Shown here in pieces: positions 19,211-59,934 of a stretch of DNA of 64,000 nt. The stretch spans positions 25,465-89,464 of the forward strand of contig CADCIP010000010.1 in assembly GCA_902801485.1 (NCBI GenBank), in the 5' to 3' direction. Below the pieces are notes generated by a model. The model was given only the letters and a program-made list of their open reading frames with translations. It did not search any database and had not been told where the DNA came from. Position numbers and translations under genes: made by a program. The stretch's first letter is position 1; each line of letters opens with the position of its first letter. This DNA is from an uncultured Bacteroidales bacterium (GTDB lineage: Bacteria; Bacteroidota; Bacteroidia; Bacteroidales; Bacteroidaceae).

Positions 19211-19218
19211 CACGTTTT

Positions 19219-42778: not shown

Positions 42779-42786
42779 CAAAGTTA
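42779..42786 (-). promoter_or_regulatory. Proximal -7 box TAACTTTG for the 7536-aa gene, 27 nt upstream of its ATG. It is overlapped by the palindrome ACTTTGC-gga-GCAAAGT (42768-42784)
   Basis: Exact TAnnTTTG match on the minus strand, with TTTG 19 nt further upstream. Confidence 0.5.
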
Positions 42787-43406: not shown

Positions 43407-43540
43407 TTGTTCAGATAGGGTTAATGAGTTGTTCAGATAGGGTTAACGAGTCATCGAGATAATCCCTTTGGGGGGTAAGGGATTATCTGAATGAGTTGTG
43501 GAGATAAGGGGAATGACTCATTGAGATTATCTGAATGAAG
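43407..43540. repeat. Cluster of direct and inverted AGATA[AG]GG / TTATCTGAATGA motifs (iteron-like)
   Basis: A 22-bp direct repeat TTGTTCAGATAGGGTTAA[TC]GAG x2 (43407-43450). A 12-bp perfect inverted repeat AGATAATCCCTT/AAGGGATTATCT (43457-43488). ATTATCTGAATGA occurs twice. Confidence 0.8.
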
Positions 43541-43766: not shown

Positions 43767-46700
43767 TTACTTAATATACAACTTCTTCTTATTAACAATG
43801 TACGTGCCTGGTGCTGTGACAGGTGTGATGACCGTCTTACCCGGCTCAAGCGTGTAAGATGCCAGCAATGCACCTGTAGCATTGACAATGTGGATGGTCT
43901 TAGCCGTCTTCAGGCCAGATACGGTAACAATGCTTCTGCCACGAGCGTAAATCTCTATTCTACCGGTATCTCTGCTCTGCAGATCCTTGTCAGGCTCAAT
44001 GGTACCACTGGCAACATTACTGAACTCAATGTAGTTAACCTCCCTTACACCATTGGATGGTACTGTAGTAAAGTACGGACGGAAGGCCTCTACGGTAACG
44101 GCATCACCCTCAGTAGGTACCTTATTATACCTGTCACCATCTTCATTGAGCGCCCATGCTGTTGTACCTGCAGCCAGCGTCTGGTTCATGTAGCTGGGAC
44201 GGAAGATATAACCGTTCTTTGTTGCTTCAGCCTCTGCCTCTAAGATTTCGTCGTCGCTCACGCGGATAGTGATAGCCGGATTAGAAGCGAAGGTAATAGT
44301 CTGCTTATCCAGTTTCGCGGGCTCCTTTGCGGTGTTCAAAGGTATGAAGCTACCGCTTAGGTCGAACTCGTAGTAGGTTGAACCTGGGAAGCCAATCAGG
44401 TATGGCGTAGCCTGGGTGAGCAACGGGTATCCGTTGTATTCACGTTTCTTCTCGTAATAAGTCCTATACAAATCCGTGTTCGCATCTTTCTGGTCATGAC
44501 CACCTTGAATTCCCTTGTAGTAGTAATCCCACAGGAAAGTATTCGTTACATCCTTCTTATTGTTGTTATCAGGATCTGGGTAGGTAAAGTTGGCAACCTT
44601 GACATTATTGTTTGCGTCCTTATCCGTGATTTTTTCTAACTTACGCAGCCAGTATTCATGACCTGTGTCACTGCCCTTATAGAAGTGCGAAATTTCACCC
44701 TTCTGCTGTGTTGTAACCAGTTCAGCGGCGAACGGCAGACTGATGCCTTGCCAGCCCTTCGTCAGGGCATCCTGCGTCAGGGTTACAAACTCGTCGTCGT
44801 CCGGTGTACGTTGGTACCACATGCGCTTATCGCTGGCAAATTTGTATGAGATAGGCGCATTAAAGTCGTTCTTATCTACCAGGAGGTGGTCGTTCACAGA
44901 CTCATACTTGATACCGTCGTTCGCAGGATTTGCCATCTTCTGAACCCAGTGACCTTGTATAGCATACATATTAGCTGCCACGGTGCGATAGCCCTCAGTA
45001 CTTTCTGCGTAAGTTGGGTCAGCAAGAGCGGCGCTCACGGTTGTAGCGGTCTTTCCATCGGCAAATGTGTATGCCAACAGGTTCTTTGTCAGGTCGATAT
45101 TATTGAATCCAGTCAGACCATCATCGTCCAGCAATGGAGCATAGAACTTAGTGCTGGTATTGTTTGGCCCGAACTTTAACTCATAAGCATTCTTGGTCCC
45201 ATTAGCGGCATACATATCATTGTAGCCAGAGAAGTCAATGGCTGTCATATCCTTATGTGCATCGTGGGCCGTTACATTGGCAGCTATCTGTTCTGCTGTC
45301 AACTTCTCGCTTTGTGTAAAGATGGCGTATGGGTTAAAGTAAGCTACACCCATATCTTTGCTGCGGAAGTATGCCGGAGCACGATATACACGGTTACCAT
45401 ATTCGTTCGTCAGCAAGCGGCTGTTGCTACGGATGATAGGTGCAGGCAATTCCTGATGACTGAGACCCGTAACCTGGTTGTAGTTCAGTGCCTGACCGAA
45501 GTACAGATAGTCGTCTGGCCAGATGGGTGAGAAGTAAACAACATCAATATCCTGGTTGTTTTCATCCTGCTCCGTCACAATCCTCATACGTATGTCGGTT
45601 TCATCGGGGATGGTACCGTTGGCATAACGGTAGTCACCATCCTTGAAGCGCTGCTCTACATAACCACGTCTTCTTGCAACATCTTCAGTTCCAATGGGAT
45701 AGTAAGCGTAATTATAGGGATAGTCACCTGTGCTCATTTTTTCGGGCAGAGTGCCATCAGCATTGGGCTGGAGGTAGTTATATTCTACCTTAGTTCCAGT
45801 CCATGACTTGTTGTTGTCATAATAACGCTTGCGCAAGTAGAATCCGTTCAGGTTGTAAGCTACTTCACCGTTGAAGAACGACTGAGCAGGCATTGGGCGG
45901 GCAATACCTCTACCATCATCAGTGTCTTTATACGTATTGGTATTTAGACTGTAGCAGTTTTCAATCTGTGTACCACTGCCCACTGTTTGACCAATAATAG
46001 CCTTAGTGGTGTTAACTGGCGTTCCTGTAGTCATTACCCAGCAGTTCTCGGCATAACCCTCATCTGCGTAATCTGCAACACCACCGCCTGTGAATGAACC
46101 TGTAACACCTAAGTTATATACATTACCACAGAGTTTGCTGAAGAGGGAACTGGTAAGGCCGGTTATCTTGTGACCATCACCATGCAAGGTACCTTCGAAG
46201 CAAATATCATTTGCAGGGTTATCATCGTCATCATTCTTGCCGATAGGTGTCCATGGGTCATCTTCATATACTGCTGGATTCTCGGTTGTAGCAGCTGTTT
46301 TTAGTTTCTTGCTATGGTCAATATCCGTACGCAGGATGAATTGCAACTTGTTAGCTCCCTTCACACGACTCTCCATTGGAACGTGTCCTGCCAGAGTGCC
46401 AGTTCCGCCTATTGGATCAGGTTTACCATCATGGTCTTCGTCTTTTTGTTCTATCAAGCTTAAATCAAACAATCGCTTCAACTCATCCAGACCGTTCTTT
46501 GTGGTTTGGGGATCGTTGGTTGTGTAATCATTGATGTATATCTTAGGCTCACGCTTTACACCACTATTATCAATGTGCATGTGGTGTGTCTTGTTGGCAT
46601 CAGACATCACCTCTGCCAAGTCGTGGTAGTTGGCCACGCTTACAGGCACATGGTTAGAGTAGGTACGGCCCAGATAGGTCTTTGCGTAGTAAGCCACATA

Positions 46701-49700
46701 CCAATCATCCTGATACCAGTAGAGCGGGTCGTACTGCGGGTCGTAGTCGATACCGTTGACGTGACTTTCTGCATCTCCAGGTGTCTCAAACAACTCCCAT
46801 CCACCACCGGTGATTTCGTATGCACCAGGTGTTACGTCAGGCTCCATCATACTGATATATTCGCCTGGTATAATCATGCTGGGCTGGATGATATCTTCTA
46901 CGGTAGGTACACCACTCTTGAACTGCAGGTGGATATTAACCACATGACGTTCACTGATAGGAGTTACATTACCACTAGCATCACTCTCCTCATAGTCGTA
47001 TTGGTAAATTACGGTGATAATCTTCTCCTTAGAGAGATTATAGATATCAGAGTTTCGGGCCACATAGAACGTACTGGTCTCTGTGGGAGATATGCCATGG
47101 ATGGTGAAATTCTTCTGGTCGTTGGGGAGATTTGAATAGCGATAGAAGGTGAGGCCATGATCGGTGTCATCGGTGCCAATGATTGCTCCTACAGGTACAG
47201 TTGCCCCTGCGCCATAACTATTATTGTTACTACCCTTGATACTCTTTACTGCATTGTCATTATTTCCTATATTATAGCTATTTTTGCAATAATAGTAGTC
47301 TTTGCCTTCATCTTCACTATCAAAATGTAATACAGTAACTTTAGCTTTCTCCTCGTCTGTCAGGTTATTATAAGCCTCTTCAGTAATTTTATCTCCAACG
47401 TTTTTGTTTTCAAATGCAGTGTTGACTACATAGTAGTCGCCAGCTTCCTCCACATGGATTGTTTCATAATTCGATTTTTCAACATCAGTCAGATTATTGT
47501 AGCCTTTGGTTGTGACGTTTATGTCGGCGGTACTGATGATAGTACCTATAGTGACCTCATCGCCGTTATAATAATTTTTACCCTCACGATCTCTAACGGG
47601 ATTCTTATCTATAGTATAATTCTCTCGGCAATAATAATAAGTTCCAGTTTCACTAAATGGAATAATATCTATTTCTTCCGGATTTTTCACAATTTCACCA
47701 TCCGTTTCCTGTAGGCTGACAAACGTTGCATTGTCAATGGTTGTACCTACTGCATAAACTGTATTGCCTATCTGGAAGGTTTTATTGACGATGTAATATT
47801 CGCCAGCTGTTTTAACATCAATAGCAGCATAGTGACGCTGTTCATTGTTCAACGACTCATAAACTTCTCGGCTCAGTTCGTCTCCCTTTTTAATTTCATC
47901 ATCGGTTACGATTGTCGGCACATTATTTTCTACACGTTTGATGCTAATGTCATATCCTAATTCCTTGGTTTCGTTGCTATTGTATGTGGCTGTATAGTCG
48001 ATTGGAGTTTCCAAAGAGTAAGTGGCAGGATTAGCTTCTGCTCCATCCGGAGTACCTGCTGCGCTGTCATACTGGTACTTTTGACCCTCTTCGTGTACTA
48101 TGTTACCCTCTTCATCCTTGCTATAAAGTGAGTCAATGAGAAGGTCAAGAGCATCATAGTTGAAATCGAACTTCTGACGGTCTGTTTCAGACATTGAACT
48201 CCAAGCCTCCAAGCCACGATAGTTCTTACCTGATTCATAGTAGTTTCCGCCAAAGAGTCCTTCCTTGGTACAATAGTAGGCGGGAACAATCTTCTTTGTT
48301 ATTTCCTCTCTCAGAGTCACTAACGATGTCAGTGACTTCTTTTTATCAGTTTCTATTTCTAAGGCCTTGATTTGTTCTGGCGTTAACTCCCCGGCATCAT
48401 CCATAATCTTATTCATGTCAGCTTTAACTGAGTTAACATAACCGGTCATCTCACCGTAAGTCATCTTACTGTTCATGTAGATGAATTCGTCCTTACTCAA
48501 TTTGATGGTACTGGTACAGATGTATGCAGGTTCTGCCTTTCCTTCGTATTCAGTATTGGTTGTGGCTTTCGTCTTAGAAATAGTTGAACCAATATTCTGA
48601 TGGTGGGTTTCGCCAGTCTCATCGTCCTTAATGCTAACCTGCTGAGTTACAATGTAGGCTTCTTCGAAGTTGGCTTGTTCACCATCCTCTGGAGTTACTT
48701 TTTTGTCAATTTGACTATTGTTGTTGACATCCTCTCCCGAATCAAGTGTGCCATTGTTGTTGACATCTTCATTGATATTCTTCACATACGTGTCATAGAC
48801 ATCCGAAGAGATGAGTTCACCAACCTTATAGCTAATCTGTCCAAGAACGCTACCAGTTCCAGATTTAAGATGGTAGGTGGGGCCGTCGTGATAGAGCAAC
48901 TTATCTTCGGTAGATTTTGTTTCGAATGTAGAGACAGAAATCTTCTTGTCCTCGTTTCCAGTGGGTGTAATCTTTGTATACCAGGTATTCCATAATTCAG
49001 GGTTATTTACCTTATAGGTCAGGATATAACCACGGTTGTGACTCACATTATTAGATGAACGGAAGATATAATCTTCATCCGCATTTTTCTTGTTTGCATC
49101 CTGAATAGTATTGCCTTCGACATCTTTGTAAGTATGCGTTCCGTAATTTGCAAGCTCATTTGGTGTCAGAACTATGGTCCCGGCAGGATGAACCACAGGG
49201 TCATCATCTATACAAACATCTACGCAATTGACGTAAGTTTCCGGTTTAAACAATTCTTTTTCAGAAGCACTCAGCAGGTTGTAGTCCCAATAGCTGATAG
49301 GATCGTTCAGATAGTAGACCTTGTCGTTAATAACAATTTTTTTGCCACTTTCCAGTTTTACACCGGGAGATGCATAGTATGCATAGTAGTTAGGCTGTAC
49401 ATTAATTAAATGCATCTTTCCGTGTGACGCAGCAGCAATGGTCAATGGGATGTCTATGGTCTCACTGAAAGCATTGGGATTACCCGTGTAGGCTGAGATG
49501 TACTGGTCGTATACATATATCTGACCCTTGATGAACCAGTAATGGGCAGGTACAAAGTCTGTGCTTAGATAACGACCACTGACATTGTAGCAGTCATCAA
49601 TAATAGTCTGGGTGCTGTGTACAAAGTTACCTGAGGTCTCCCATTCATACTTGTTATTATCACTAGTATCGTATTGATAGTCCCACTTAGTAACGGCACC

Positions 49701-52700
49701 ATTGTTCAATGCCGTCAGCGTAGTATTTTTGTGATTGGTTTTGCTGCGTTTGCCATGTTCGTTCTTGGCATAGACGAATCCACCACCAATACCGGTCTGC
49801 ACATTAATAAGGTCAAGCTCTATGACACCGGTAATGGGGCCCCAAACTTTTTCGTTCAAATCAGTTCCAGTACTCTCCTCTGTGGTCAACTCCAAATATA
49901 CACCGGATGCCAAGGCCACCTTGTTGTGGCTGTTTCCATTATTGCGCTTATGCTCCTGATGGAAGGCTTTTTTCCATTTGTAGAAGTCGGTGCCGGGCTG
50001 ATTATACACATAATTTGTATAGGTGGGGTTATCTTCATTATCAACTCCGGTTTGTATCTTTGCATCTTCTTTATAAATCGAGTTATTGTTATCTGTTGTT
50101 CTGATATCGCCGGCACCATCTTCACCGCCAAAGTCCACGTCGCTAGTCAGGGCGCCTAAGTAGTTTACAATGTTGTAAATACCAAAGTAGTTACCATGCA
50201 TATAGCCATCGGTATCTACTGCATCACCTGCTGTGGAAATCTTCTTGTTCAGAGAGACCTCACGAACACGGTTAATGGTGTAGTTGGTATAGTCCATGAT
50301 CTCTGGTACACGGTCCTGTGCTCCCTGCATCACCATACGGCTACCAAAGACACCACAGAAATCAGCACGTTGGATACTGTTCATCAGTCTGCCGGCATAA
50401 ACAGGCAAAACTCCGTTCTCTTCCCAATAGGTATCATTGGGTTCCCAAACTTCATTTGTTTCATTATAGTTAAGAATAGCAGTAGTGCCATCTTTGACAG
50501 ATTCATATTTCTTTGTTGTCTCGTTATATTCAAGGAACAGAGTCAGCAAGTCATCTGCTGTGATGGTTGACGCCTTAGTGTTTCCATCCTCGGCGTAATA
50601 CCAAGTATGTTCTTTATCCTGACAAGTTTTCTTGCACTTATATTTCAACTCATAGTAAGCAGCCTCACGATCAGGTAGGGCTTTGTACTCAGAGATTGTA
50701 ATTTCTTTTTTAATGGAATAGTAATCGGTACCATAGTTGGTGATGTTCAACTCACGGTAGCCATCTACCAGTGTCAGGTTACCATCACCATACAGACCAC
50801 CGGTATGACCTGTACCCAGTGTGATCATATCGCGGTGATAGATATCGTGGACAGAGGCGGTGGCATTACCAAATACTGAGATGGTATTGGCATTGGTGGT
50901 GGAACCTGATGAGGTGTTACCACCAGCAAATACAGCATTATGGATAATGATACCAAAGTCATCAAGTTGTCCCCATGTGGCTTTATCTTCAGAGTCGTTT
51001 TTGGCCTTTAATGTATTAAGGGCAGCAATAGGAACATAAGTGCCAGCAGAATAGGTGCGATCGAAAGTAATACCGGCTGGGTCAATTACGTTTCCAAAAA
51101 TATCTATTTTGTTTTTGTAGCTATCATTCTCTTTCAGGTAATTAAAGTCTATTGTGGCGACTTTTTCGCCTACTGCATAATGAATACCTGTGAAAGAGGC
51201 CGTTTCGCCAGTCTTAACTTTACACTGTGGCTCAATAAGTACCTTGCAGTCCTCTGTAAGCATTCTTTCTTCCTTACTGGTTGAGCCTGTAGTCACGGTT
51301 TCTGTGATGAAACCTTGAGAATCTATGTTTGAACCAGTGGAGTTGTCGCCATACCATTTGTGTTTGTAGTAATAACCTTGATAATCATCTTTATAGCGTT
51401 CACTTCCTTCGGGTTTCACGCCTCGGCCAAACTTAACAACCTTCTCGTTTCCTGAAGTTACCTCTTCGTACTCGTAAGCACTGTACACATATCCAATATC
51501 GCCACCACCAAAGACGTTGCCGTCACCATTGGCTGTGCCTGCAGTAGTTCCAATCTCTCCACCATGGATGTGCACCTCAGTTTGACCAAAGATGTAACCA
51601 TCACAGTTAAGCTTACCATGTTCATTCAGGTTGTTGTATCCACGACCGCCACCAAAGACATTTCTGTGTACATGACCACCAAACATTTCTACATCAGTTC
51701 TACCGGGACGGTAAATACCAACTAGCGTGCGGGTAGTCTTGCCTCCAGTGGAAGATACGCTCATTTTTCCACGACCAATAGCTGCAATCTCACCTCCACC
51801 AAAGACACTATTGCGGATATGGCCGTCGTAGAGATTTACAAAGGTCTTGTCAACGCTACTGTTGTCCACGTAACCACCGCCAAAGACGCAGCCGGCTTCA
51901 TAAAGACGAGAGTTGGGAATATGATTGCCGTCTTTATCTTTGTGCGTATCGTCATCTATCTTCTCAACATAACGTTCATCGTGATCTGTTTCTTGGTCAT
52001 CTTGTAGAGCGGCATTATATTCATATCCAATATATCCATTGTTAATGGTTACGTTAGAATTACCATAAATGGGAGCACCCTCGCCTCCACCATATACGTT
52101 ACGTGTAACGGCGGGAATACCACTTGTGAAATTGTTGCCTTCAACATAAAGGTCACCAATCACCACATTGGTTTCGCCTGGAATGTCATTTGTTGGTGCA
52201 TCGCTAAATTCACCTACGTGCTTGCCGACTTCACCATTCCAACCGCCGCCATAGACATTACGACAAGTACCACCCTTGATGTAAACATTGGCACTGGCCG
52301 TAAAGTTCTTGCACTCTACAGAATCCTGAACGGCACCAGAGGTTCCAGCGGCATAGATATCCTTATTTACCTTACCACCCAGCAATGCAATATAAGTGGT
52401 ACCGGCTACCTTGGCATATTCACCCAAGCCACCACCGTAAGCATAGTTACCTACGTAGGCACCTTCGTTGATGATAACATTGGTGTTGAATTTACCGCCG
52501 GTGTTGCCCAAAAGTTCTTTGGTTCTGCCATCCATCTCATTGGCAGTTCTGACAAGTCTATCATTGCTTAGATTCGTCCAGTTATTAGCTGTGTAATTGC
52601 GTGAGCCTTGTGCATCCGAAAGGGGATCAAAATAAAAAGAACCATCTGAGTAGGTACCAGACAATCTCCATGCTTCGTAGGGGATTACAATATCTCCATC

Positions 52701-55700
52701 TTGTTTACCAGGTCTGTCGGGTGCATAGTCATTCATGTACTTTTGAACACTCTGTGCATTATACACTTTTCCGTCCTGGCCGCCACCATAGACCTCCCAA
52801 ACCTCAGCACCATCGTTCAGGTTGACCTCGGTGTACTCCGACCATGTGTCAGCACCCAGTCCGGCACCAAAGATGTAACCGGTACTACTACCATATTTCC
52901 AATGTTCTGTATTGACGGGCGAGTTGATGTTTACCTTACTATAGATGGTACGGCGCTCGTTGTTATTACCACCATAGATGGAACCTCTCTGTAACGGATC
53001 TCCAACAGGTTGTTTCGTATCCTCATCTATTCTTGGTGGGTTGTAAATGAGTAGGGCGTCTTTACTACTGTATATCACATTGGCCTCATAAACATCACAT
53101 GGGGTCCAATAGTTCAATCCGTAAGCGCCACCAAAGATACTACCAATCTTGATGGTAGATGTTTCGGGAACATTTACTACGGTACGCAATGTAACGCCTT
53201 CTTCATAACTGCCACCGTATGCAGCACCAATCTGACCGCTCATCAAATCAATAGTGGCTGTAGCTTCATCCAAAACGAAGTCTTCTTCATAGGTTTCTTT
53301 TTTGCTATAGCGCATACCCATACCGTTTCTTCTGCCGGCACCGAATACCTCGGTATCTCGGAACGGTTGTGGTGTCTTACCCTCATCATATCCTGGGAGG
53401 TTATAGAAAGGTAAATTTATAAGAACGTAGCTGTGGTCTTGCATCTTGTCACCTTCCAGTCCTGCTGCACCCTGGCCACCACCAAAGACTTTGGACAGAT
53501 GGTTAAAACTGGCAAAAGCGCTGTTCGTGATGTTCTCATCAGGTCTGATATCGACAACAGCGTTATGGTTGTATGGCATATAATCACCTACGCGGCTCTT
53601 GTATTTGGGATCTTCGTAGTCATAGTCGCCATAACAGCCACCAAAGATACCAATGGCGTAACCTTGATCATAATGAGTATAGGTGGTGGCAATCCTGTTT
53701 TGATTATTAAGGTTTACTGTAAAATTATCTGCGTTCAGGATGCGACCTCCCAAATCGTTGGCGCCATAGGTGTAATCACGAATGAAGGGGTAACCGCCTT
53801 CCTCTAGTCCGGATGCATTCAGACCTTTTCCGATGTACGTCTCGGCATGACCCAGCACATCGGCATTACATGCACCGCCCCAGGAGTTGAAGATACGTCC
53901 ATTGCCCAGATACACGCGGGTATCGCCTATAACAGGTCCTTGGAAACCACCACCATAGGCAAACTCGATATCTGCCATGTCTTCTCTTCCGTTAACATCA
54001 GAACGTGGCGTTCCGTATTTGTCTGCAGTACCATGCAAGTTGATGGTGGTACTGTATGCGGGGTTGTACTCGTATCGTTTGCCGTTGAATGAGTAGTAGC
54101 CAGTAGTCTTGTCATAAGTTCCATCTGCTGCATTACTTGTGCCAGTGGATTTACCAATCACACCTTCCTCACTACCACCAAAGACTTGGAATGTATAACT
54201 CTTCTTAACGTTGATGGTAGTGCTGCCCCATACCTCGGAGTCTTTACCATAGCCTCCAGCAAAGACGTTAAGGGCAGAACCCAAAACGTCCATACCCTGC
54301 TCGTCGAGGATTACACCCGAGTTACGCTGGGTAATGTGATATTTGAAATCTTCTGGATGGTCGTACAATGAGCGGTCCGGATCGTTGCTGACAACGGCAA
54401 AGACTTCGTCGCGCTTTACCAAATCATTTTCCAGATTTATTACGATATTGCCGTTTACATGTCCGCTATGGTAGCAGCCTCCATATACGTTACCGCCTAA
54501 GAGACGGCGGGCAATGTCATCATCAGTTGCATCACCGGTACCTGAGCCAGAAGTTGTCTCTACAAAGCCATTGGTCCATTCATAGTAATTGCTTCCGTCG
54601 GCAGCTTCATTTCCTGTAGCGGTATATTCGGTATATTTGTTGTTGCTTTCTTTCGTGTAATACTTCTTACCTTCCGTTAATGTAGTACCATTGGGTACAG
54701 CGGTATAATCCTCCCACTTAACGGTGTTCCATTCCAATGCGTTGTCTAATGTTGTACCGGTTTCGGTCAACCTCTTGGGTTCAAACCGGATACCTTTTCC
54801 TTCGTAAGGCGTGAAATTCAGCTCCAGACGGTCTTTAATCTTTTTGTTTTCGCCACTGCCCTCTGTGTATCCATCAGAGTTTGCTCGTTCAGCCAGACTT
54901 CCAATAATTCCACCATCATATGCTGCATTATAAGGGCCTTCAGGAACGTATGCATCGTTACAACCACCGACAAACTTGTTGTAGATGGTAATGGGAGCAT
55001 TCAACGTCATGGAGTTTTCACCACTATACGTCATACTGCCTACATTTCCACCTAAGAAGAAACTACCGATATAGCTGGAATATGGTATGTAATCCTCTTT
55101 GTCGGCAGGAGTTTTTTCGAAGGATAGGGTGGGCTGCATATCCAAGGCGGCTCCTTCCATATATTCAGCAAATGTGGAGGCGTCCTGTTTAAAATCAATG
55201 GTAAAGTAGTCTGTGTAACCGTCTTCAACTTTTCCGATTTTTCCATCTTTATCAACGCCTTTGGCATAAAATTCCAAAACGTCCTCTTTAACCATGCCCT
55301 CTCCGTTGTTGCCAAGGAATACGTTCTCGGCAATAACATGGGAACCCATTTTAAGTTCTACCAAAGGGCTCTCCATGCTGGATTTCAGCGTAGCGCAGTT
55401 TCCTCCTAAGAAAACCTTACCACGGATGATGGTGGGCTCCTGAGCACTTTTCCCTCTCAAATGGATGGATACCTGCTCTGCATTGGGGCGGAAATCGTTA
55501 AGAGCTCCTATAATAGACGTAGCCCCCGAGGGCTGCTCAAAATAAAGGTCTTTGAAGTATGGGTGGCTCGCTAGTTCTGGGTTGTTTGTATATGCGTATG
55601 CACCGTTACCACCACCATAAACATCTCCACGGATACTGGTTCTGATGCCCACTGCATTACCGCCCGTTACCTTACCCGTAATGTCGTTACCACCATAAAC

Positions 55701-57110
55701 GTTGTTGATGTCTCCACCAGCAATTACCAAACGTGCCGACAAACCGGGCGGGAACTTATATTTGGGGTCCTCCAGCTTGATGTCCTCAATAGCTACATAG
55801 TCGGGCTCAAAAGTATCATCCGGAACATCTGGTTCCAGCTTTCCAGATTTCAATGGTACAACATCAGCCATACGGCAACCGCCAAAGACGTTGTCCACTT
55901 TAAGGGTTGAGGTTTCTGGTATTTCCAGCAGCAGACCTACGGGACTGGTCATGGCTCCCTTGTTTCCACCGCTGTACAGGTTACGGACCTTACCGCTCTG
56001 CAGGTCCCATTTGGGACGGATAGCCATTTCAGCCATATTGTTTCCACCAAACATACGACCAACCTGGAAGGCATCGCTGGAAGGATAAGATAAGGCAAGG
56101 TTGATACCCATGTCCCTGAAACGTGCATCTATCAGCAACTCACCAGCATGCTCATCGTCACCAGCATTTTTGCTTGTAATTCTTGTATCCTTAATGCTGG
56201 TTACTACCTCACTGGGGTTGTCATAATGAATGACAGTTTCTTCTGTTATGGTAGCGTTGTTACCGCCTCCGTAAACATAGTCGATGGAGCCTCCCTCAAG
56301 ATCCAAGAATGTCTTCTGCAACTCCGGTCGGTTAAAGCCGGTTTCGCCAGGCTCTGTAATCTTTGTGGCGATAACTGTGTTTTCACCTACATTCTTGATA
56401 GTGTGGATGATTTTTCCGTTTCCGTCAGGTTTTTGTTCATAATCATATTCACCATTACCACCGGCAAAGACCTGACCAATGTATATTTTGCCTTCTTGTG
56501 CTTCTGTCTTTATATCATTGGTAGTTCTAAATCCTTCATCGCCTTCTTGCAGACTATTTGCTGTGTTGTATTCATCGCATTCTGCCTGTGTATAGTGAAC
56601 GGCATCGGTTTTTGTTGTTCCAATATGAACATAACTGTTCCAGGTGTTATCTACACCTTTTGCGGTAGCATCTCCAGAGGTTAACCACGTGGGTAGGTTT
56701 GCTGTGCCAATGTTACCGGAGATGTCATTACCACCAAAGACTTGGTTAACTACAATATAGTCACTTGCGGTCTTGCACGTTACATTAACAGATGTGTTAC
56801 CGCCCACATTGGCCATACGGGCACCACCAAATACCTTACCTCTTGGGTTGTCTAATTGCTTATCGTTGTTGGTATAGCGCGATCCTATATCACCAGCCTT
56901 AACCTCAACCTTGGTGCTACCTTCCACATTACCTTGGTTACCACCACCATACACATTACCACCAATACGGATTTGACCGTAAACATTGAACATTGAACAT
57001 TGAACATTGAACATGAAGATAAAGGCCATAAGCCCCCTAAGCCCTATAGATTTTATGGGGCTTATAAGCTGCTTCATTATGGTCTTTATTCTTCTCATTC
57101 TTTTTATCAA
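43767..57110 (-). CDS. Giant T9SS cargo protein (4447 aa in the ORF track; probable ATG at 57098): beta-solenoid N-half, mixed middle, GLUG-like region and C-terminal sorting domain
   Basis: Uninterrupted 13.3-kb ORF. The track start is TTG, and the first ATG gives MRRIKTIMKQ.. . Repeats of the type GNVYGGGNQGNVEGSTKVEVKAG occur in the N-half. The C-terminus is a T9SS CTD (see feature 43770-43973). Confidence 0.9.
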   Translation of the reverse strand: MIKRMRRIKTIMKQLISPIKSIGLRGLMAFIFMFNVQCSMFNVYGQIRIGGNVYGGGNQGNVEGSTKVEVKAGDIGSRYTNNDKQLDNPRGKVFGGARMANVGGNTSVNVTCKTASDYIVVNQVFGGNDISGNIGTANLPTWLTSGDATAKGVDNTWNSYVHIGTTKTDAVHYTQAECDEYNTANSLQEGDEGFRTTNDIKTEAQEGKIYIGQVFAGGNGEYDYEQKPDGNGKIIHTIKNVGENTVIATKITEPGETGFNRPELQKTFLDLEGGSIDYVYGGGNNATITEETVIHYDNPSEVVTSIKDTRITSKNAGDDEHAGELLIDARFRDMGINLALSYPSSDAFQVGRMFGGNNMAEMAIRPKWDLQSGKVRNLYSGGNKGAMTSPVGLLLEIPETSTLKVDNVFGGCRMADVVPLKSGKLEPDVPDDTFEPDYVAIEDIKLEDPKYKFPPGLSARLVIAGGDINNVYGGNDITGKVTGGNAVGIRTSIRGDVYGGGNGAYAYTNNPELASHPYFKDLYFEQPSGATSIIGALNDFRPNAEQVSIHLRGKSAQEPTIIRGKVFLGGNCATLKSSMESPLVELKMGSHVIAENVFLGNNGEGMVKEDVLEFYAKGVDKDGKIGKVEDGYTDYFTIDFKQDASTFAEYMEGAALDMQPTLSFEKTPADKEDYIPYSSYIGSFFLGGNVGSMTYSGENSMTLNAPITIYNKFVGGCNDAYVPEGPYNAAYDGGIIGSLAERANSDGYTEGSGENKKIKDRLELNFTPYEGKGIRFEPKRLTETGTTLDNALEWNTVKWEDYTAVPNGTTLTEGKKYYTKESNNKYTEYTATGNEAADGSNYYEWTNGFVETTSGSGTGDATDDDIARRLLGGNVYGGCYHSGHVNGNIVINLENDLVKRDEVFAVVSNDPDRSLYDHPEDFKYHITQRNSGVILDEQGMDVLGSALNVFAGGYGKDSEVWGSTTINVKKSYTFQVFGGSEEGVIGKSTGTSNAADGTYDKTTGYYSFNGKRYEYNPAYSTTINLHGTADKYGTPRSDVNGREDMADIEFAYGGGFQGPVIGDTRVYLGNGRIFNSWGGACNADVLGHAETYIGKGLNASGLEEGGYPFIRDYTYGANDLGGRILNADNFTVNLNNQNRIATTYTHYDQGYAIGIFGGCYGDYDYEDPKYKSRVGDYMPYNHNAVVDIRPDENITNSAFASFNHLSKVFGGGQGAAGLEGDKMQDHSYVLINLPFYNLPGYDEGKTPQPFRDTEVFGAGRRNGMGMRYSKKETYEEDFVLDEATATIDLMSGQIGAAYGGSYEEGVTLRTVVNVPETSTIKIGSIFGGAYGLNYWTPCDVYEANVIYSSKDALLIYNPPRIDEDTKQPVGDPLQRGSIYGGNNNERRTIYSKVNINSPVNTEHWKYGSSTGYIFGAGLGADTWSEYTEVNLNDGAEVWEVYGGGQDGKVYNAQSVQKYMNDYAPDRPGKQDGDIVIPYEAWRLSGTYSDGSFYFDPLSDAQGSRNYTANNWTNLSNDRLVRTANEMDGRTKELLGNTGGKFNTNVIINEGAYVGNYAYGGGLGEYAKVAGTTYIALLGGKVNKDIYAAGTSGAVQDSVECKNFTASANVYIKGGTCRNVYGGGWNGEVGKHVGEFSDAPTNDIPGETNVVIGDLYVEGNNFTSGIPAVTRNVYGGGEGAPIYGNSNVTINNGYIGYEYNAALQDDQETDHDERYVEKIDDDTHKDKDGNHIPNSRLYEAGCVFGGGYVDNSSVDKTFVNLYDGHIRNSVFGGGEIAAIGRGKMSVSSTGGKTTRTLVGIYRPGRTDVEMFGGHVHRNVFGGGRGYNNLNEHGKLNCDGYIFGQTEVHIHGGEIGTTAGTANGDGNVFGGGDIGYVYSAYEYEEVTSGNEKVVKFGRGVKPEGSERYKDDYQGYYYKHKWYGDNSTGSNIDSQGFITETVTTGSTSKEERMLTEDCKVLIEPQCKVKTGETASFTGIHYAVGEKVATIDFNYLKENDSYKNKIDIFGNVIDPAGITFDRTYSAGTYVPIAALNTLKAKNDSEDKATWGQLDDFGIIIHNAVFAGGNTSSGSTTNANTISVFGNATASVHDIYHRDMITLGTGHTGGLYGDGNLTLVDGYRELNITNYGTDYYSIKKEITISEYKALPDREAAYYELKYKCKKTCQDKEHTWYYAEDGNTKASTITADDLLTLFLEYNETTKKYESVKDGTTAILNYNETNEVWEPNDTYWEENGVLPVYAGRLMNSIQRADFCGVFGSRMVMQGAQDRVPEIMDYTNYTINRVREVSLNKKISTAGDAVDTDGYMHGNYFGIYNIVNYLGALTSDVDFGGEDGAGDIRTTDNNNSIYKEDAKIQTGVDNEDNPTYTNYVYNQPGTDFYKWKKAFHQEHKRNNGNSHNKVALASGVYLELTTEESTGTDLNEKVWGPITGVIELDLINVQTGIGGGFVYAKNEHGKRSKTNHKNTTLTALNNGAVTKWDYQYDTSDNNKYEWETSGNFVHSTQTIIDDCYNVSGRYLSTDFVPAHYWFIKGQIYVYDQYISAYTGNPNAFSETIDIPLTIAAASHGKMHLINVQPNYYAYYASPGVKLESGKKIVINDKVYYLNDPISYWDYNLLSASEKELFKPETYVNCVDVCIDDDPVVHPAGTIVLTPNELANYGTHTYKDVEGNTIQDANKKNADEDYIFRSSNNVSHNRGYILTYKVNNPELWNTWYTKITPTGNEDKKISVSTFETKSTEDKLLYHDGPTYHLKSGTGSVLGQISYKVGELISSDVYDTYVKNINEDVNNNGTLDSGEDVNNNSQIDKKVTPEDGEQANFEEAYIVTQQVSIKDDETGETHHQNIGSTISKTKATTNTEYEGKAEPAYICTSTIKLSKDEFIYMNSKMTYGEMTGYVNSVKADMNKIMDDAGELTPEQIKALEIETDKKKSLTSLVTLREEITKKIVPAYYCTKEGLFGGNYYESGKNYRGLEAWSSMSETDRQKFDFNYDALDLLIDSLYSKDEEGNIVHEEGQKYQYDSAAGTPDGAEANPATYSLETPIDYTATYNSNETKELGYDISIKRVENNVPTIVTDDEIKKGDELSREVYESLNNEQRHYAAIDVKTAGEYYIVNKTFQIGNTVYAVGTTIDNATFVSLQETDGEIVKNPEEIDIIPFSETGTYYYCRENYTIDKNPVRDREGKNYYNGDEVTIGTIISTADINVTTKGYNNLTDVEKSNYETIHVEEAGDYYVVNTAFENKNVGDKITEEAYNNLTDEEKAKVTVLHFDSEDEGKDYYYCKNSYNIGNNDNAVKSIKGSNNNSYGAGATVPVGAIIGTDDTDHGLTFYRYSNLPNDQKNFTIHGISPTETSTFYVARNSDIYNLSKEKIITVIYQYDYEESDASGNVTPISERHVVNIHLQFKSGVPTVEDIIQPSMIIPGEYISMMEPDVTPGAYEITGGGWELFETPGDAESHVNGIDYDPQYDPLYWYQDDWYVAYYAKTYLGRTYSNHVPVSVANYHDLAEVMSDANKTHHMHIDNSGVKREPKIYINDYTTNDPQTTKNGLDELKRLFDLSLIEQKDEDHDGKPDPIGGTGTLAGHVPMESRVKGANKLQFILRTDIDHSKKLKTAATTENPAVYEDDPWTPIGKNDDDDNPANDICFEGTLHGDGHKITGLTSSLFSKLCGNVYNLGVTGSFTGGGVADYADEGYAENCWVMTTGTPVNTTKAIIGQTVGSGTQIENCYSLNTNTYKDTDDGRGIARPMPAQSFFNGEVAYNLNGFYLRKRYYDNNKSWTGTKVEYNYLQPNADGTLPEKMSTGDYPYNYAYYPIGTEDVARRRGYVEQRFKDGDYRYANGTIPDETDIRMRIVTEQDENNQDIDVVYFSPIWPDDYLYFGQALNYNQVTGLSHQELPAPIIRSNSRLLTNEYGNRVYRAPAYFRSKDMGVAYFNPYAIFTQSEKLTAEQIAANVTAHDAHKDMTAIDFSGYNDMYAANGTKNAYELKFGPNNTSTKFYAPLLDDDGLTGFNNIDLTKNLLAYTFADGKTATTVSAALADPTYAESTEGYRTVAANMYAIQGHWVQKMANPANDGIKYESVNDHLLVDKNDFNAPISYKFASDKRMWYQRTPDDDEFVTLTQDALTKGWQGISLPFAAELVTTQQKGEISHFYKGSDTGHEYWLRKLEKITDKDANNNVKVANFTYPDPDNNNKKDVTNTFLWDYYYKGIQGGHDQKDANTDLYRTYYEKKREYNGYPLLTQATPYLIGFPGSTYYEFDLSGSFIPLNTAKEPAKLDKQTITFASNPAITIRVSDDEILEAEAEATKNGYIFRPSYMNQTLAAGTTAWALNEDGDRYNKVPTEGDAVTVEAFRPYFTTVPSNGVREVNYIEFSNVASGTIEPDKDLQSRDTGRIEIYARGRSIVTVSGLKTAKTIHIVNATGALLASYTLEPGKTVITPVTAPGTYIVNKKKLYIK
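43770..43973 (-). other. T9SS (Por) C-terminal sorting domain, type A-like
   Basis: The last 68 aa are RDTGRIEIYARGRSIVTVSGLKTAKTIHIVNATGALLASYTLEPGKTVITPVTAPGTYIVNKKKLYIK. The pattern matches Por_Secre_tail: ..I.v....v..l.G.....i.N..G..v.......g...i.....GtYiv. Confidence 0.75.
45950..46215 (-). other. GLUG-like region of the 4447-aa protein
   Basis: ICFEGTLHGDGHKITGLTSSLFSKLCGNVYNLGVTGSFTGGGVADYADEGYAENCWVMTTG..IENCYSLN shows the same F.GT.(D/H)G.GH.I.GL..LF....G.v.NLgv pattern as the head of the 7536-aa protein. Confidence 0.4.
56980..57014 (-). repeat. In-CDS heptamer repeat ATGTTCA x4 (+ ATGTTTA) in the signal-peptide region of the 4447-aa gene
   Basis: The plus strand reads taaacat tgaacat x4. 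The coding strand encodes FMFNVQCSMFNVYGQ. Each unit contains an ATG. Confidence 0.9.
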
Positions 57111-57227
57111 CGATAACGTTAACGTTAACGATAACTATTTTATTCTTTTAATCTTTCTAAAGTCTAAAGTCTAGTGTCTATAGTCTTTAACCTTTTAACT
57201 GTCACCTATCACCTATCAACTATCAAC
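57108..57227. repeat. Concatenated short-repeat blocks: the GATAACGTTAACGTTAACGATAAC module, CTA[AGT][AGT]GT x4, CTTTAAC-like x2, T[GA]TCA[CA]C x4
   Basis: Read directly. Together with E6 they make up nearly the whole spacer between the 435-aa and 4447-aa genes. Confidence 0.9.
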
Positions 57228-57228
57228 T

Positions 57229-57259
57229 TTCCCTCCCCCAAGGGGGAGCCGGAGGGGGC
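57229..57259 (+). repeat. GC-rich palindromic element copy E6, 7 nt downstream of the 435-aa gene stop
   Basis: ttCCCTCCCCCaaGGGGGAGccGGAGGGGGC. Confidence 0.85.
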
Positions 57260-57265
57260 TTTTAA

Positions 57266-58573
57266 TTAATTCAGTTCCACCGTTGGATTATCCAGATCCC
57301 AATTTCCTAACTGGTACAGGTAGGTGGGTTTTAGGGTCAGTTTTATTGTATATTTTTTACCTCTGTCCAGGTATGGAATGCTGTTAAACAGTCTATACAT
57401 ATCTATTTTGTTTTCCACTATGCTATTCTTTCTGATCAGATGCTCATCACTTCTGTCATAGACATCATAGGTGCTGCGCAGCATATAGAAGTTGTTTATG
57501 TTGGGTACTACGTAGGCGTAATCCACATTATCTGTGTATTTTAATTCCTCTGAGTTTGCCACCGTTCCAGATGGAATCTCCACCTCGCCATCAAAGAATG
57601 TTATGAATGGCATAGGGTCACCAGTAGCGTTTTGTGAGAAGGTGATACTCGTGATGGGCGATGTTCCACCTGTTGCATCATCGTTAGCTGTCAGCGTTAC
57701 GGTAGCGTTAATTCCCTTTCGCTTCATAAGCGTGTTGTCATCATCGCTATTGTATGACGAATATCCCCTCAACTCCAATTTCTTCAACTTTATTTTACGC
57801 AGCGCTGCGTAAGTGTCATCAACATGGAACTGGAAGTCTATAGCAGCGTACAGGTGCTCAAAGAGCATGAAGAGGTAGTTGTGCGTATCAGCTCCGTTGT
57901 ATATGGTACAGGAGAAATCTCCTCTTCTTAGGGTCTTTTCGTCTGCGATTTCTGTGGCCGATTTACCCTCTTTCGCTCCCACCAGAATGCAAATATCTTC
58001 ACCTGATACGCTACCCATATTATTGAGAGTAAGTATAGCACCATTATCATATGAACTGTTAGGAGCAACAGAGGATGCCCCTGTCGCCTCATTTGGCGAG
58101 AAGCCATAGAGATACTGTATGCCAGCAGGTGCCTCTTTATCAATAATCCATTTGTTGGGAGTGGTGGTAGTATAATACCAGATATGCCGTTGTTCGACGG
58201 TTGTTGAATAGGTAAAGAATGCGCCAATAGAAGAATGCTTTATAGGTTCATAATAACCAGTAGGTGGTGTCCATTCATCAGCACGTGTCCCAGTGCTCTC
58301 CACATCCTCATAAGGTGCCAAGTAGCTCATTATCTGCACGGGAGCACCCTGCTCCTCAGCAGGTGGAACCTGCTCTGAGGAGCAGGAAGAGAAAATGAAG
58401 GCTGCGATTAAGAGAGAGGAGAGCCAAACTAGTTTGAGCTTTCCCGAACGTGAGCAGGCTCGACCGAAGGTCAAGAATGAAGAATGAAGAGTGAAGAATA
58501 GGCATAATATGCTCAGGCTCATGGATCTCATGGGCTTTATAAGCTTGCTTATTATGGTCTTTATTCTTCTCAT
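57266..58573 (-). CDS. Fimbrillin (Mfa-like, type V pilin)-family lipoprotein, 435 aa, with an unusually long N-terminal leader
   Basis: Lipobox ..AAFIFSSC at Cys64, then ..STGTRADEW (Arg97). An internal LYAAIDFQFHVD-type strand and overall beta-rich composition resemble the neighbouring pilin-like genes. Confidence 0.7.
   Translation of the reverse strand: MRRIKTIISKLIKPMRSMSLSILCLFFTLHSSFLTFGRACSRSGKLKLVWLSSLLIAAFIFSSCSSEQVPPAEEQGAPVQIMSYLAPYEDVESTGTRADEWTPPTGYYEPIKHSSIGAFFTYSTTVEQRHIWYYTTTTPNKWIIDKEAPAGIQYLYGFSPNEATGASSVAPNSSYDNGAILTLNNMGSVSGEDICILVGAKEGKSATEIADEKTLRRGDFSCTIYNGADTHNYLFMLFEHLYAAIDFQFHVDDTYAALRKIKLKKLELRGYSSYNSDDDNTLMKRKGINATVTLTANDDATGGTSPITSITFSQNATGDPMPFITFFDGEVEIPSGTVANSEELKYTDNVDYAYVVPNINNFYMLRSTYDVYDRSDEHLIRKNSIVENKIDMYRLFNSIPYLDRGKKYTIKLTLKPTYLYQLGNWDLDNPTVELN
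58472..58499. repeat. In-CDS heptamer repeat [CG]AAGA[AG]T x4, the same family (opposite orientation) as 924-944
   Basis: caagaat gaagaat gaagagt gaagaat. Encodes LFFTLHSSFLTF in the leader of the 435-aa protein. Confidence 0.85.
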
Positions 58574-58582: not shown

Positions 58583-58686
58583 CTAGGCTAGCTAGTTTAA
58601 CTAGTCTCACTAGTTCTAACTAGGATTTGTTCAACCGTAAACCGTAAACGGTAAACTAATTATAATTTTTCACTTTTCACTTTTCA
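58583..58686. repeat. CTAG-word repeat, AAC[CG]GTA x3 and [TC]TTTTCA x3 blocks in the spacer between the 376-aa and 435-aa genes
   Basis: Read directly. The families are the same as at 13064-13117 and 14384-14432. Confidence 0.9.
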
Positions 58687-58704
58687 TTTTTTGCTGTGCA
58701 AAAA

Positions 58705-59835
58705 CTACCAATTATACAAATCATATTTCTGTTCACCACCATCATTCCAGTTTATCACACCCGTGTGGACCATATCCAGTTCCACACCACCACTCTCATT
58801 TATTTTAAATATGTACGTGTAGCTGTAGCTTGGCAGCCAAACCATATATTGTGCTGGTACCGTACAGTCTTTTTCCTCACCATTCACGGTTAATGAAAAC
58901 TCGTAGGCTCCCTGATTGCGATTAGGTACTACAGTGTACCATGGGCCAGCAGGAATAGCTGGGGTGACGCTATTGTCTCCCTCCTTCCAGGGAGTTGAAA
59001 GTTCTGCCATTGATGTCAACTCATCAAATTCTGTTGTTTCCCAACTCTCCTCCGTAACATTTCCGGTAATAGGGTAGGTTACTGTATAGGTACAATTGGT
59101 GTAGATGTCCTTTCCCTCTGCCATGGGGTGGAAGCTATAGTCTTTTAAGGTTGGGTCTAACTCATTTTCACTATTCTTTACAACGCGTACTATAAACCTT
59201 ACCTTAGCCAGAGGCTTTATAAACTTCAGGGTTACCGCCTCACCAAAAAGGTTAGTGCCTGTGTTGTCCGAGAACCATAGCTTGCTGTAGTATGGCGTGC
59301 TGGACTCATTCAGGGCATTGGCGGTAAAAGAGGTTTCGTAGGTGCCATCTGTGGTATTTTGGGTCACCGTTGCATCTGCCGATGTTCCTGTTACCGCAAA
59401 GAAGCGGTAGGCCTTGGCAGACCAGTCCCAGTATTTAGGTGTCTGGTCGGGATAAGCGATAAGGATATAGTCCCAACTGTTAGAGTTGGTAGTCGAACTG
59501 CCGGCGCTGTTATCTGCATATCTTACGCGGTATTCGTTCATAACCGTCTGGTAGGTAGAGTAGGGATTTCCCTGAGGCCCGTTGTTTTTAAAGGCCCAAA
59601 CGCGGAAAGATGTAACACCCGTGTTTTGCAGAGGAGTGCTGCCGGCGCGCGTCACCTCCTCGTCCTGCTGGTTAGCAGAGAAGGCGATAACCGTCTGCAA
59701 AGGCTCCGGCTTCTGCGGTTCCGGCACGTGATCGGAAGAGCAGGCCCCCACAAGCCCCATAAGCCCTATAAGCCCCACAAGCCCTATCAGCCTCATAGCC
59801 CCATTTGCCTTATAATCTTCCTCTCTCTCTCTCAT
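58705..59835 (-). CDS. Fimbrillin-family lipoprotein, 376 aa in the ORF track (probable start Met14 at 59796)
   Basis: MRLIGLVGLIGLMGLVGACSS lipoprotein signal (Cys32 in ORF numbering), VIAFSANQQDEEVTRAGS (Arg63), and VTLKFIKPLAKVRFIV, a fimbrillin-like strand. Confidence 0.75.
   Translation of the reverse strand: MREREEDYKANGAMRLIGLVGLIGLMGLVGACSSDHVPEPQKPEPLQTVIAFSANQQDEEVTRAGSTPLQNTGVTSFRVWAFKNNGPQGNPYSTYQTVMNEYRVRYADNSAGSSTTNSNSWDYILIAYPDQTPKYWDWSAKAYRFFAVTGTSADATVTQNTTDGTYETSFTANALNESSTPYYSKLWFSDNTGTNLFGEAVTLKFIKPLAKVRFIVRVVKNSENELDPTLKDYSFHPMAEGKDIYTNCTYTVTYPITGNVTEESWETTEFDELTSMAELSTPWKEGDNSVTPAIPAGPWYTVVPNRNQGAYEFSLTVNGEEKDCTVPAQYMVWLPSYSYTYIFKINESGGVELDMVHTGVINWNDGGEQKYDLYNW
59749..59802 (-). 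repeat. Six in-frame 9-nt units of the CATAAGCCC family encoding the signal-peptide h-region (LIGLVGLIGLMGLVG)
   Basis: cacaagccc cataagccc tataagccc cacaagccc tatcagcct catagcccc on the plus strand. Confidence 0.9.
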
Positions 59836-59872
59836 TCTTCTTTAACTCTTAACCTCTAACCTTTCTGTATTG

Positions 59873-59904
59873 CAAAGTTACTTCTTTTATTTAAACCTGC
59901 CAAA
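59873..59904 (-). promoter_or_regulatory. Internal promoter-like pair: -33 TTTG (59901-59904) and -7 TAACTTTG (59873-59880), 20-nt spacer
   Basis: Exact consensus matches on the minus strand, 31 nt after the 642-aa gene stop and 38 nt before the ATG at 59835. Confidence 0.45.
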
Positions 59905-59934
59905 TTCGTTATGTTAAATTTGTTTGTCAGTTGC

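Follow-up and report, generated by a model that had tools for sequence, protein, structure and literature searches.

The window analysed here is a stretch of 64,000 nucleotides (nt) of contig CADCIP010000010.1, from an uncultured Bacteroidales bacterium. We studied one intergenic spacer in this window, at 57099-57265, which is built largely of short tandem-repeat blocks, together with the arrays of similar repeats found elsewhere in the window. Pfam matches comprise V-type ATPase subunits D, I and K, a CarboxypepD_reg/OMP_b-brl_3 outer-membrane protein (OMP), a rhaK-I-P-aldolase operon, a Wzx-type flippase and YfhO, and identify the window as Bacteroidales chromosome. A protein search with RhaA returned rumen and gut Prevotellaceae, with a top match of 97% identity in L001, a sheep-rumen metagenome-assembled genome that is syntenic with window positions 3120-15525 at 79-93% nucleotide identity. 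The host is an uncultured rumen member of the Prevotellaceae.

The focal spacer separates two minus-strand genes, a lipoprotein-like gene of 435 amino acids (aa) upstream and a giant open reading frame (ORF) of 4447 aa downstream. The most likely start of the giant gene is the ATG at 57098 (MRRIKTIMKQ), which delimits the spacer as 57099-57265 (167 nt). Gene callers on related contigs put this start at the next ATG, 57077. A previous sequence-only reading had set the left boundary at 57111, which derived from a TTG-start ORF and is less likely than the ATG at 57098. Its list of blocks was sound, each of them being found in the sequence. In the region 56800-57600, read block by block, the spacer contains one module of hexamers, three arrays of heptamers and a hairpin element rich in GC, E6, as follows.

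57099 to 57265, minus strand: focal spacer, lying between the stop codon of the 435-aa lipoprotein-like gene (57266-57268) and the giant-ORF ATG (57098)
57108 to 57135: hexamer module, CAACGATAACGTTAACGTTAACGATAAC, AACGWT x 4.5
57136 to 57156: T-rich linker of 21 nt, the sole stretch outside a clear block, with a weak Tandem Repeats Finder (TRF) call, TTTTAATC x 2.4
57157 to 57184: heptamer array, CTAAAGT CTAAAGT CTAGTGT CTATAGT (final unit CTAAAGT in other strains)
57185 to 57199: two units of the xxTAAC family, CTTTAAC CTTTTAAC
57200 to 57227: heptamer array, TGTCACC TATCACC TATCAAC TATCAAC (TRTCAMC), of the AACTATC family and reading GTTGATA in gene sense
57231 to 57263, minus strand: E6, CCCTCCCCCAAGGGGGAGCCGGAGGGGGC (57231-57259) followed by TTTT, directly past the stop of the upstream gene

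The hexamer module lies 9 nt from the giant-gene ATG and includes a 14-nt palindrome, CGTTAACGTTAACG. In gene sense E6 reads GCCCCCTCCGG-CTCCCCC-TT-GGGGGAG. The xxTAAC family recurs in the window at 957-981, 19054-19086 and 59842-59866. The focal spacer contains no long-range inverted repeat. It also lacks the Bacteroidetes -7 box (TAnnTTTG) and is therefore probably an intercistronic stretch of one transcript.

We defined an array as a TRF call with a period of 5-11 nt and at least 2.8 copies. By this definition arrays occupy 90 of the 167 nt of the focal spacer. In 1000 shuffles that preserved dinucleotides the mean was 0.05 nt, and 90 was never reached. The whole window holds 29 arrays (2.9-27.9 copies), 19 of period 7 and five each of periods 6 and 9, which cover 21.3% of its 3757 non-coding bases and 0.47% of its 60243 coding bases. 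Summed over all intergenic stretches, arrays amount to 782 nt, compared with 3.8 ± 10 nt in shuffles. Enrichment of the repeat words at gene junctions, which the sequence-only reading had put forward as a check, is borne out by a density about 45-fold higher outside coding sequence. That most junctions contain repeats, as it had claimed, also holds: TRF arrays were found in 10 of the 16 intergenic intervals tested, and at three more places (936-965, 13068-13135 and 59836-59934) arrays cross a gene boundary or narrowly miss the threshold. The word families it had listed at other junctions are present in the sequence, and the sharing of units exceeds expectation. Counting units as common if they agree with at most one mismatch, in any rotation and on either strand, 18 pairs of heptamer arrays share a unit where 5.1 were expected, a number reached in none of 2000 randomisations. 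The 6-9-nt units abut directly, unlike the 24-48-nt repeats and unique spacers of a CRISPR array. No Rfam family matched anywhere in the window at gathering thresholds, and no tRNA or tmRNA was found in it.

Variation between strains and species

Two sets of conspecific contigs were compared with the window. Ten contigs were selected by an exact V-ATPase K protein and are 99.5-99.7% identical in the I-subunit gene. For the focal spacer, ten further contigs were obtained via cluster members of the adjacent protein and are 96-100% identical in the gene for that protein; a metagenome scan with the 435-aa protein gave a sole match, 34% identical and paralogue-like. Two spacers next to V-ATPase genes were compared in the first set.

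7393 to 7446: arrays in the V-ATPase I-K spacer, CGCTAAY x 4.6 then GTAAACM x 3
8060 to 8455: V-ATPase K-OMP spacer, GGTTAAC/GGTTAGC x 2, a terminator hairpin, GTTTACN x 8.4 and CCGCTAA x 27.9

The I-K spacer ranged from 213 to 300 nt, with 6 alleles in 9 usable conspecific sequences, and the K-OMP spacer, which adjoins a convergent OMP gene, from 249 to 416 nt, with 8 alleles in 10. These ranges bear out the earlier suggestion that the repeats set spacer length. In both spacers the differences in length were confined to the arrays, and the unique segments, including the terminator hairpin, were constant. Among strains the copy number was 2-7 for CGCTAAY, 3-12 for GTAAACN, 2 to about 25 for GGTTAGC (about 25 in L083) and 5-28 for CCGCTAA. 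Exact multiples of 7 made up 21 of 47 indels in the I-K spacer and 72 of 114 in the K-OMP spacer. The same allele was found in independent samples (L081 and L090; L088 and L089). The earlier proposal of slippage is upheld in that conspecific strains differ by whole repeat units, and its check of orthologous spacers between strains found the arrays both present and variable.

Three haplotypes of the focal spacer were found among strains, distinguished by the following units.

Window and L093, gene sense: GTTGATA GTTGATA GGTGATA GGTGACA
L095-L101, gene sense: GTTGATA x 3 then GGTGACA, with a single altered unit in the CTAAAGT array
L102 and L103 (two samples): exactly one GTTGATA unit fewer, 3 units against 4 in the others

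Outside these units the spacer was identical throughout, hexamer module and E6 included, and the other haplotypes are separated only by substitutions that convert one unit into its neighbour. In the spacer at 58583-58691 the TTTTCAC array (GTGAAAA) had one additional unit in L095-L099, and a 9-mer array encoding part of a signal peptide (59746-59804) was one unit shorter in other strains. Arrays lengthen, shorten and become homogenised in steps of whole units. Within the species polymorphism is high in long perfect arrays, and short degenerate ones, such as those of the focal spacer, seldom change. An assembly artefact was ruled out, as the focal spacer was recovered in independent assemblies from different samples and sources. 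Absolute copy numbers call for caution because they come from short-read metagenome assemblies, which are liable to collapse arrays, and in two contigs scaffold N gaps lie exactly on arrays (L083 about 3715-3815 and L086 about 4454-4750).

Between species, some arrays are inherited with a changed copy number and others are replaced. GTTTACN has 4 copies in the sister species L001 against 8 in the window, and CCGCTAA about 36 against 28. The orthologous rhaI-rhaP spacer measures 91 nt in the window and about 290 nt in L001, and between rhaK and rhaI L001 has the unrelated units GTTAAAAT x 8 and TTTTCAA x 3 in place of the CTAG 9-mers of the window. We extended the comparison to 80 Prevotellaceae loci from the RhaA search. 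TRF array density in these loci ranged from 0 to 1.16 per kb, and units and periods (7, 8, 10 and 11) were specific to the lineage; the species of the window, L001 and L080 count among the array-rich lineages. When the window was included, period 7 was the commonest (65 of 140 arrays), followed by periods 8 (31), 9 (20) and 11 (19), and arrays covered 3.7% of non-coding and 0.14% of coding sequence. In this combined sample arrays were present in 16% of divergent, 18% of co-directional and 13% of convergent spacers, and array length per base was highest in co-directional spacers. The two divergent-promoter spacers of the window are array-free. A restriction of arrays to non-promoter contexts is only weakly supported.

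Other arrays and shared modules of the window

Arrays in other spacers of the window are listed below, together with one array in the 5' untranslated region (UTR) of a gene and one at the 3' end of an ORF.

13064 to 13117: in the rhaK-rhaI spacer, CTAG-containing 9-mers, the first CTAG supplying the rhaK stop TAG
14377 to 14482: in the rhaI-rhaP spacer and its borders, GTAAACN x 8.1 (which gives the rhaI stop TAA) and CTCAATT x 3.7 (ending in the rhaP ATG)
15525 to 15579: rhaP-aldolase spacer, filled by CCCATAAGC-type 9-mers x 5-6
16421 to 16472: in the aldolase/YfhO convergent spacer, ACGTYA hexamers x 3.7 and AATTATC x 3.7
19013 to 19213, minus strand: rpsO-YfhO spacer, hexamer module (19013-19040), CTTTAAC/CTATAAC x 4.7 (19054-19086), a unique stretch and an E6 core (19182-19198)
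58583 to 58691: spacer upstream of the 435-aa gene, CTAG 9-mers x 3.4, GTAAACC x 3.4 and TTTTCAC x 3.6
59842 to 59866, minus strand: CTTTAAC TCTTAAC CTCTAAC, in the 5' UTR downstream of a perfect promoter, TTTG-N20-TAACTTTG
957 to 1013, minus strand: GTCTAAC x 3.6 and a copy of E6 (core 986-1001), at the 3' end of a glycosyltransferase ORF

Array units provide several stop and start codons in the window. In the glycosyltransferase ORF translation passes through E6 and the stop codon lies within the GTCTAAC array. In the K-OMP spacer (8060-8455) the first array is the reverse complement of the last, a mirror arrangement, and copy number in the two arms showed no obvious co-variation across strains.

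Arrays also occur within reading frames, where those of heptamers are rare. Three ORFs for membrane proteins each contain an in-frame heptamer array; the three belong to one family and are oriented so as to be stop-free. Further arrays lie at the 5' ends of the giant ORF and of a lipoprotein gene.

443 to 477, minus strand: acyltransferase ORF, AACTYTC in gene sense, encoding NSQLSTFNFQLS
4052 to 4087, minus strand: Wzx-like flippase ORF, AACTATC x 5, encoding SQLSTINYQLS
17686 to 17717, minus strand: YfhO ORF, AACTCTC x 4.6, encoding NSQLSTLNSQLL
56982 to 57014, minus strand: N-terminal array of the giant ORF, AACATTG x 4.7, encoding MFNVQCSMFNV and equal in length in all strains
57026 to 57062, minus strand: inverted repeat ATAAGCCCC / GGGGCTTAT, of the CATAAGCCC word family, at the 5' end of the giant ORF
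59746 to 59804, minus strand: lipoprotein signal-peptide array, 9-mer CCCCATAAG x 6.7, encoding the hydrophobic core LIGLVGLIGLMGLVGAC

The wzx array has five copies in 11 of 11 conspecific strains, with a variant unit that shifts position, and the intergenic arrays of those same strains vary widely. At this site L001 (about 945-985) has a GC-rich E6-like insert in place of the array; the protein loop tolerates both kinds of repeat. Within ORFs only the stop-free orientation and frame-preserving lengths persist. Arrays survive only where they do little harm, in spacers, at the extreme ends of ORFs, in signal peptides and in protein loops.

The giant ORF downstream of the focal spacer (43767-57098, 4447 aa) is one of two on the minus strand, the other being 20142-42752 (7536 aa); both are rich in VYGGG-type short repeats. 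Four lipoprotein genes (645, 642, 376 and 435 aa) precede them, and because spacers 57099-57265 and 61864-62006 contain no promoter motif these genes may form a long operon. The giant ORF (57081-57098) and the 435-aa ORF (58556-58573) share their first 18 nt, ATGAGAAGAATAAAGACC, encoding MRRIKTI, after which each has a ATAAGCCC-type word and then an in-frame heptamer array. The true starts are uncertain because gene callers on related contigs pick differing ones (352-430 aa). Upstream of the 7536-aa ORF, at 42779-42962, is an 86-nt tandem duplication (2.1 copies); each copy has a TAACTTTG -7 box, and the promoter has therefore apparently been duplicated. Between the two giant ORFs (43407-43538) we observed two 22-nt direct repeats, TTGTTCAGATAGGGTTAACGAG, and after them related copies in inverted orientation that surround a GAGATAATCCC...GGGATTATCT hairpin. 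The arrangement might be an invertible element or the site of a recombinase.

Two modules of the focal spacer recur in other spacers. The 28-nt hexamer module has an exact second copy at 19013-19040, and in the focal spacer it was the same in every strain examined. In the window the E6 core, CTCCCCC-N2-3-GGGGGAG, is present three times (986, 19182 and 57233), with 0 expected. The rpsO-YfhO and focal spacers have these modules in a common order relative to their genes, and the stretch between the modules is unrelated. No MITE (a miniature transposable element with inverted repeats) or other mobile palindromic element was recognisable in the window, as what these two spacers, the most similar pair, have in common is limited to the 28-30-nt module and E6. 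E6 cores (CTCCCCC-N1-6-GGGGGAG) were also observed in further Prevotellaceae loci (L013 3177, L016 3568, L049 165, L075 11273 and 11364, L001 89 and 4241). Folding gave E6 a stability no greater than that of shuffles of the same composition. E6 may represent a hairpin at the 3' end of genes akin to repetitive extragenic palindromic (REP) sequences; a terminator or a hairpin that stabilises RNA would be other candidate roles. Like REP sequences and bacterial interspersed mosaic elements (BIMEs), as generally known, E6 is a multi-copy GC-rich imperfect palindrome 3' of stop codons, in fixed orientation to the upstream gene (three copies in the window, and L001). The sequences themselves are unrelated, and the likeness covers the E6 element alone.

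Explanations for the arrays

The arrays are probably simple sequence repeats (SSRs), driven by slippage and dominated by heptamers, which persist where selection tolerates them. They would arise by slipped-strand mispairing as DNA is replicated or repaired, and certain Prevotellaceae lineages would have an elevated rate of it. The recurrence of unit families at unlinked sites and the mirrored arrays may reflect copying between arrays at the DNA level, by gene conversion or template switching. Neither would call for a dedicated mobile element, although a modest component of mobile modules could be accommodated. The arrays would need no function of their own. They would determine how long the intercistronic and untranslated regions are and what composition these have, and any effect on expression may be incidental.

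Bacteroidetes promoters follow the consensus TTTG-N17-23-TAnnTTTG. As they differ from sigma-70 promoters, we scanned the spacers for TTTG followed after 17-23 nt by TAnnTTTG. Canonical promoters were present in array-poor spacers of the window; the focal spacer and the array-rich spacers inside operons yielded none. The spacer at 59836-59934 has a perfect promoter followed by a 5' UTR, that of gene 58705-59835, consisting almost wholly of three heptamers; arrays therefore sit in transcribed spacers. Across the 80 loci and the window the arrays showed no orientation bias relative to genes and were not tied to start codons; they lay at a median of 66 nt from the downstream start and slightly nearer to stops. 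A role as all-frame stop-codon insulators was ruled out, as in co-directional spacers 29 arrays have stops in the sense strand only and 25 in the antisense strand only. An A-rich unstructured leader for translation without a Shine-Dalgarno sequence was likewise rejected (A/T skew 52:48 and G/C skew 42:58 in gene sense), and array composition is that of the remaining spacer. Selection for RNA structure or for its absence was also dismissed, with a folding z-score of -0.2 for the focal spacer and values of inconsistent sign, from +0.9 to -3.0, for other array spacers. Taken together, the stop-codon, skew, start-distance and folding results speak against a reader specific to one strand and favour a process at the DNA level. 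The earlier notion of binding arrays finds no backing in orientation preference, skew, stop-strand bias or consistent RNA structure.

Several observations weigh against slippage as the full account. In related loci, pairs of arrays of the same period lying no more than 300 nt apart were inverted in 20 cases and direct in 5, compared with 28 inverted and 32 direct for pairs more than 300 nt apart. This excess of inverted pairs suggests a further process, or selection acting on pairing. Such mirrored arrays flank a core of 20-220 nt and were also seen in L004, L013, L053, L073, L077 and L044 (6574-6684). In L080, three near-identical composites of about 110 nt, (AAGTGAA)4 - 58 nt - (TTCACTC)4, occupy consecutive co-directional spacers (3869-3982, 5994-6104 and 6773-6883). 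The mirrored pairs and the L080 composites could be a dispersed palindromic element or the product of template switching from arm to arm. Pure slippage in place does not predict the sharing of unit families between unlinked sites or the identical 28-nt module. The focal spacer is about 99% conserved, against 96-98% for the adjacent gene, and this higher conservation could be a sign of constraint. The copy numbers themselves can be affected by array collapse in short-read assemblies.

A quite unlikely alternative is that the arrays are binding sites, in a 7-nt register, for an RNA- or DNA-binding protein of the S1 or cold-shock type, forming a post-transcriptional network in a phylum without Shine-Dalgarno sequences, as has been proposed for TAACTGA repeats. 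The position of arrays in transcribed spacers and 5' UTRs (with almost all of the 5' UTR of gene 58705-59835 being array), the recurrence of a limited set of unit families and the conservation of the focal spacer between strains would all suit such a role. There are precedents in the proposal for Beggiatoaceae, in which heptamer binding by CspB is noted (MacGregor 2015, PMC4679880), and in the modest effects of heptamer repeats on expression described in a Nostoc preprint (10.1101/2022.06.06.494920). However, a protein reading these sites would have to cope with arrays that show no orientation preference, skew or start-codon lock, with folding z-scores scattered around 0, with units and even periods that differ between lineages, with unrelated units in orthologous spacers of a sister species and with 2 to 28 copies among near-identical strains. 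Switching of the giant surface protein and lipoprotein genes by phase variation, with the arrays as contingency loci like the 7-bp repeats of Haemophilus influenzae hmw genes, is very unlikely. Arrays flank the V-ATPase genes, the rhamnose catabolism operon and rpsO as densely as they do surface-protein genes, the phenomenon is genome-wide and the in-frame arrays are invariant in length, hence always ON, in every strain seen. What speaks for switching is the place of the focal spacer upstream of a 4447-aa repeat-rich surface-type protein, the heptamer arrays at the 5' ends of the giant and 435-aa ORFs, in which a change of one unit would shift the frame, the one-unit strain differences in the focal and neighbouring spacers, and the precedent itself (PMC8262952, PMC12721329).

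Tiny mobile or templated-insertion modules, composites like MITEs, REP sequences or BIMEs copied whole to new junctions, had been suggested from the sequence alone and are no more than hinted at. Unit families do recur at unlinked loci, the 28-nt module is exact at two loci and E6 occurs at three, in constant order relative to genes; the wzx site holds E6 or an array in two species, the three L080 composites are near-identical and inverted array pairs are common. On the other side, no defined termini, target-site duplications or associated transposase were seen, stretches between shared modules are unrelated, every strain difference observed is a gain or loss of units in place and different species have inherited some arrays at orthologous sites. 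We therefore regard modules of this kind as unlikely. There is a similarly slim chance that certain Prevotellaceae have an active, sequence-family-restricted propagation that copies heptamer arrays between sites and between palindrome arms, for example by hairpin priming or template switching, and so builds and rebuilds spacers, and that the arrays might be read by a protein in a 7-nt register as a genome-wide tunable layer of expression. Slippage under permissive selection remains our preferred explanation.

Known repeat systems and the Prevotellaceae

Contrary to the sequence-only reading, which did not recognise a described repeat system, the class has been described in cyanobacteria, Xanthomonas, Burkholderia, Beggiatoaceae and some Bacteroidetes (PMC4679880, PMC4692102). 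It is the host lineage that appears novel, the class being already known; no report of such arrays in Prevotella was found in the literature searched. Heptamer-dominated, mostly intergenic long SSRs have been found in Burkholderia, Xanthomonas, cyanobacteria and actinobacteria, and polymerase slippage has been put forward as their cause (Mrazek 2007, in the summaries of PMC4679880 and PMC4692102). The arrays studied here have each feature of long SSRs (units of 5-11 nt), with head-to-tail arrays above chance, a commonest period of 7 and changes by whole units. They also resemble them in being mostly intergenic, in keeping units not divisible by 3 out of ORFs and in a sporadic, lineage-specific distribution. 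The window differs in crowding several unit families into single short spacers, to 50-80% of their length, and rumen Prevotellaceae are not among the lineages reported for long SSRs.

Individual heptamer systems give closer comparisons. As cited in PMC4692102, the short tandemly repeated repetitive (STRR) sequences of Calothrix PCC 7601 and Nostoc are heptanucleotide families whose copy-number variation is used in strain fingerprinting. As in our window, a few heptamer families are dispersed over many intergenic sites of one genome, but the units and the phylum are different and the window has hexamer and 9-mer arrays alongside heptamers; the STRR1-3 units CCCCAGT, TTGGTCA and CAACAGT have no tandem copies in it. 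TAACTGA repeats are found in Beggiatoaceae, in cyanobacteria and in five Bacteroidetes, and lie a short way upstream of starts, in forward orientation (MacGregor 2015, PMC4679880), and the same study describes spacers of Gramella, Aequorivita and Elizabethkingia as 'assemblages' of heptamer repeats at which contigs break. Common to that system and ours are intergenic heptamers next to housekeeping genes, contig breaks and occasional translated copies (LSVISYQ there, SQLSTxN here). It has one dominant unit, whereas the window has many, with no orientation bias and no start-codon lock, and TAACTGA occurs in the window five times singly and never in tandem. The GGGAATC and GGGGAYT heptamers of Xanthomonas and Nostoc vary between close relatives and include some inverted pairs (Rehm et al. 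2015, PMC4692102). They too form arrays at conserved gene junctions, variable in length and sequence among close relatives, but their units are G-rich and quadruplex-forming, whereas those of the window are A/T-rich without G-runs, and none of the named units of this type is in tandem in the window. The phase-variable hmw1A and hmw2A genes of H. influenzae have upstream 7-bp repeats (PMC8262952, PMC12721329). They share with our arrays the heptamer tracts in the promoter or 5' UTR of large adhesin-type genes and the changes in steps of one unit. Such loci are few, concern surface and host-interaction genes and have demonstrated switching, whereas the arrays described here are genome-wide, include housekeeping operons and are known from sequence.

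Prevotellaceae dominate the rumen and many gut communities and are mostly known from short-read metagenome bins. Because contigs gain N gaps at arrays, the arrays help to explain why such bins are fragmented. With 6-8 alleles among strains about 99.6% identical, they are also ready-made strain markers. Arrays shift starts and stops and add translated stretches, such as the SQLSTxN inserts and the 9-mer signal-peptide core, and gene callers are misled by them. The bias towards mirrored arrays is worth genome-wide attention. Finally, the differences between lineages in density, in period (7, 8 and 11) and in mirrored pairing make the Prevotellaceae a comparative system for asking why heptamers are favoured in bacteria and which property of replication or repair sets this preference.

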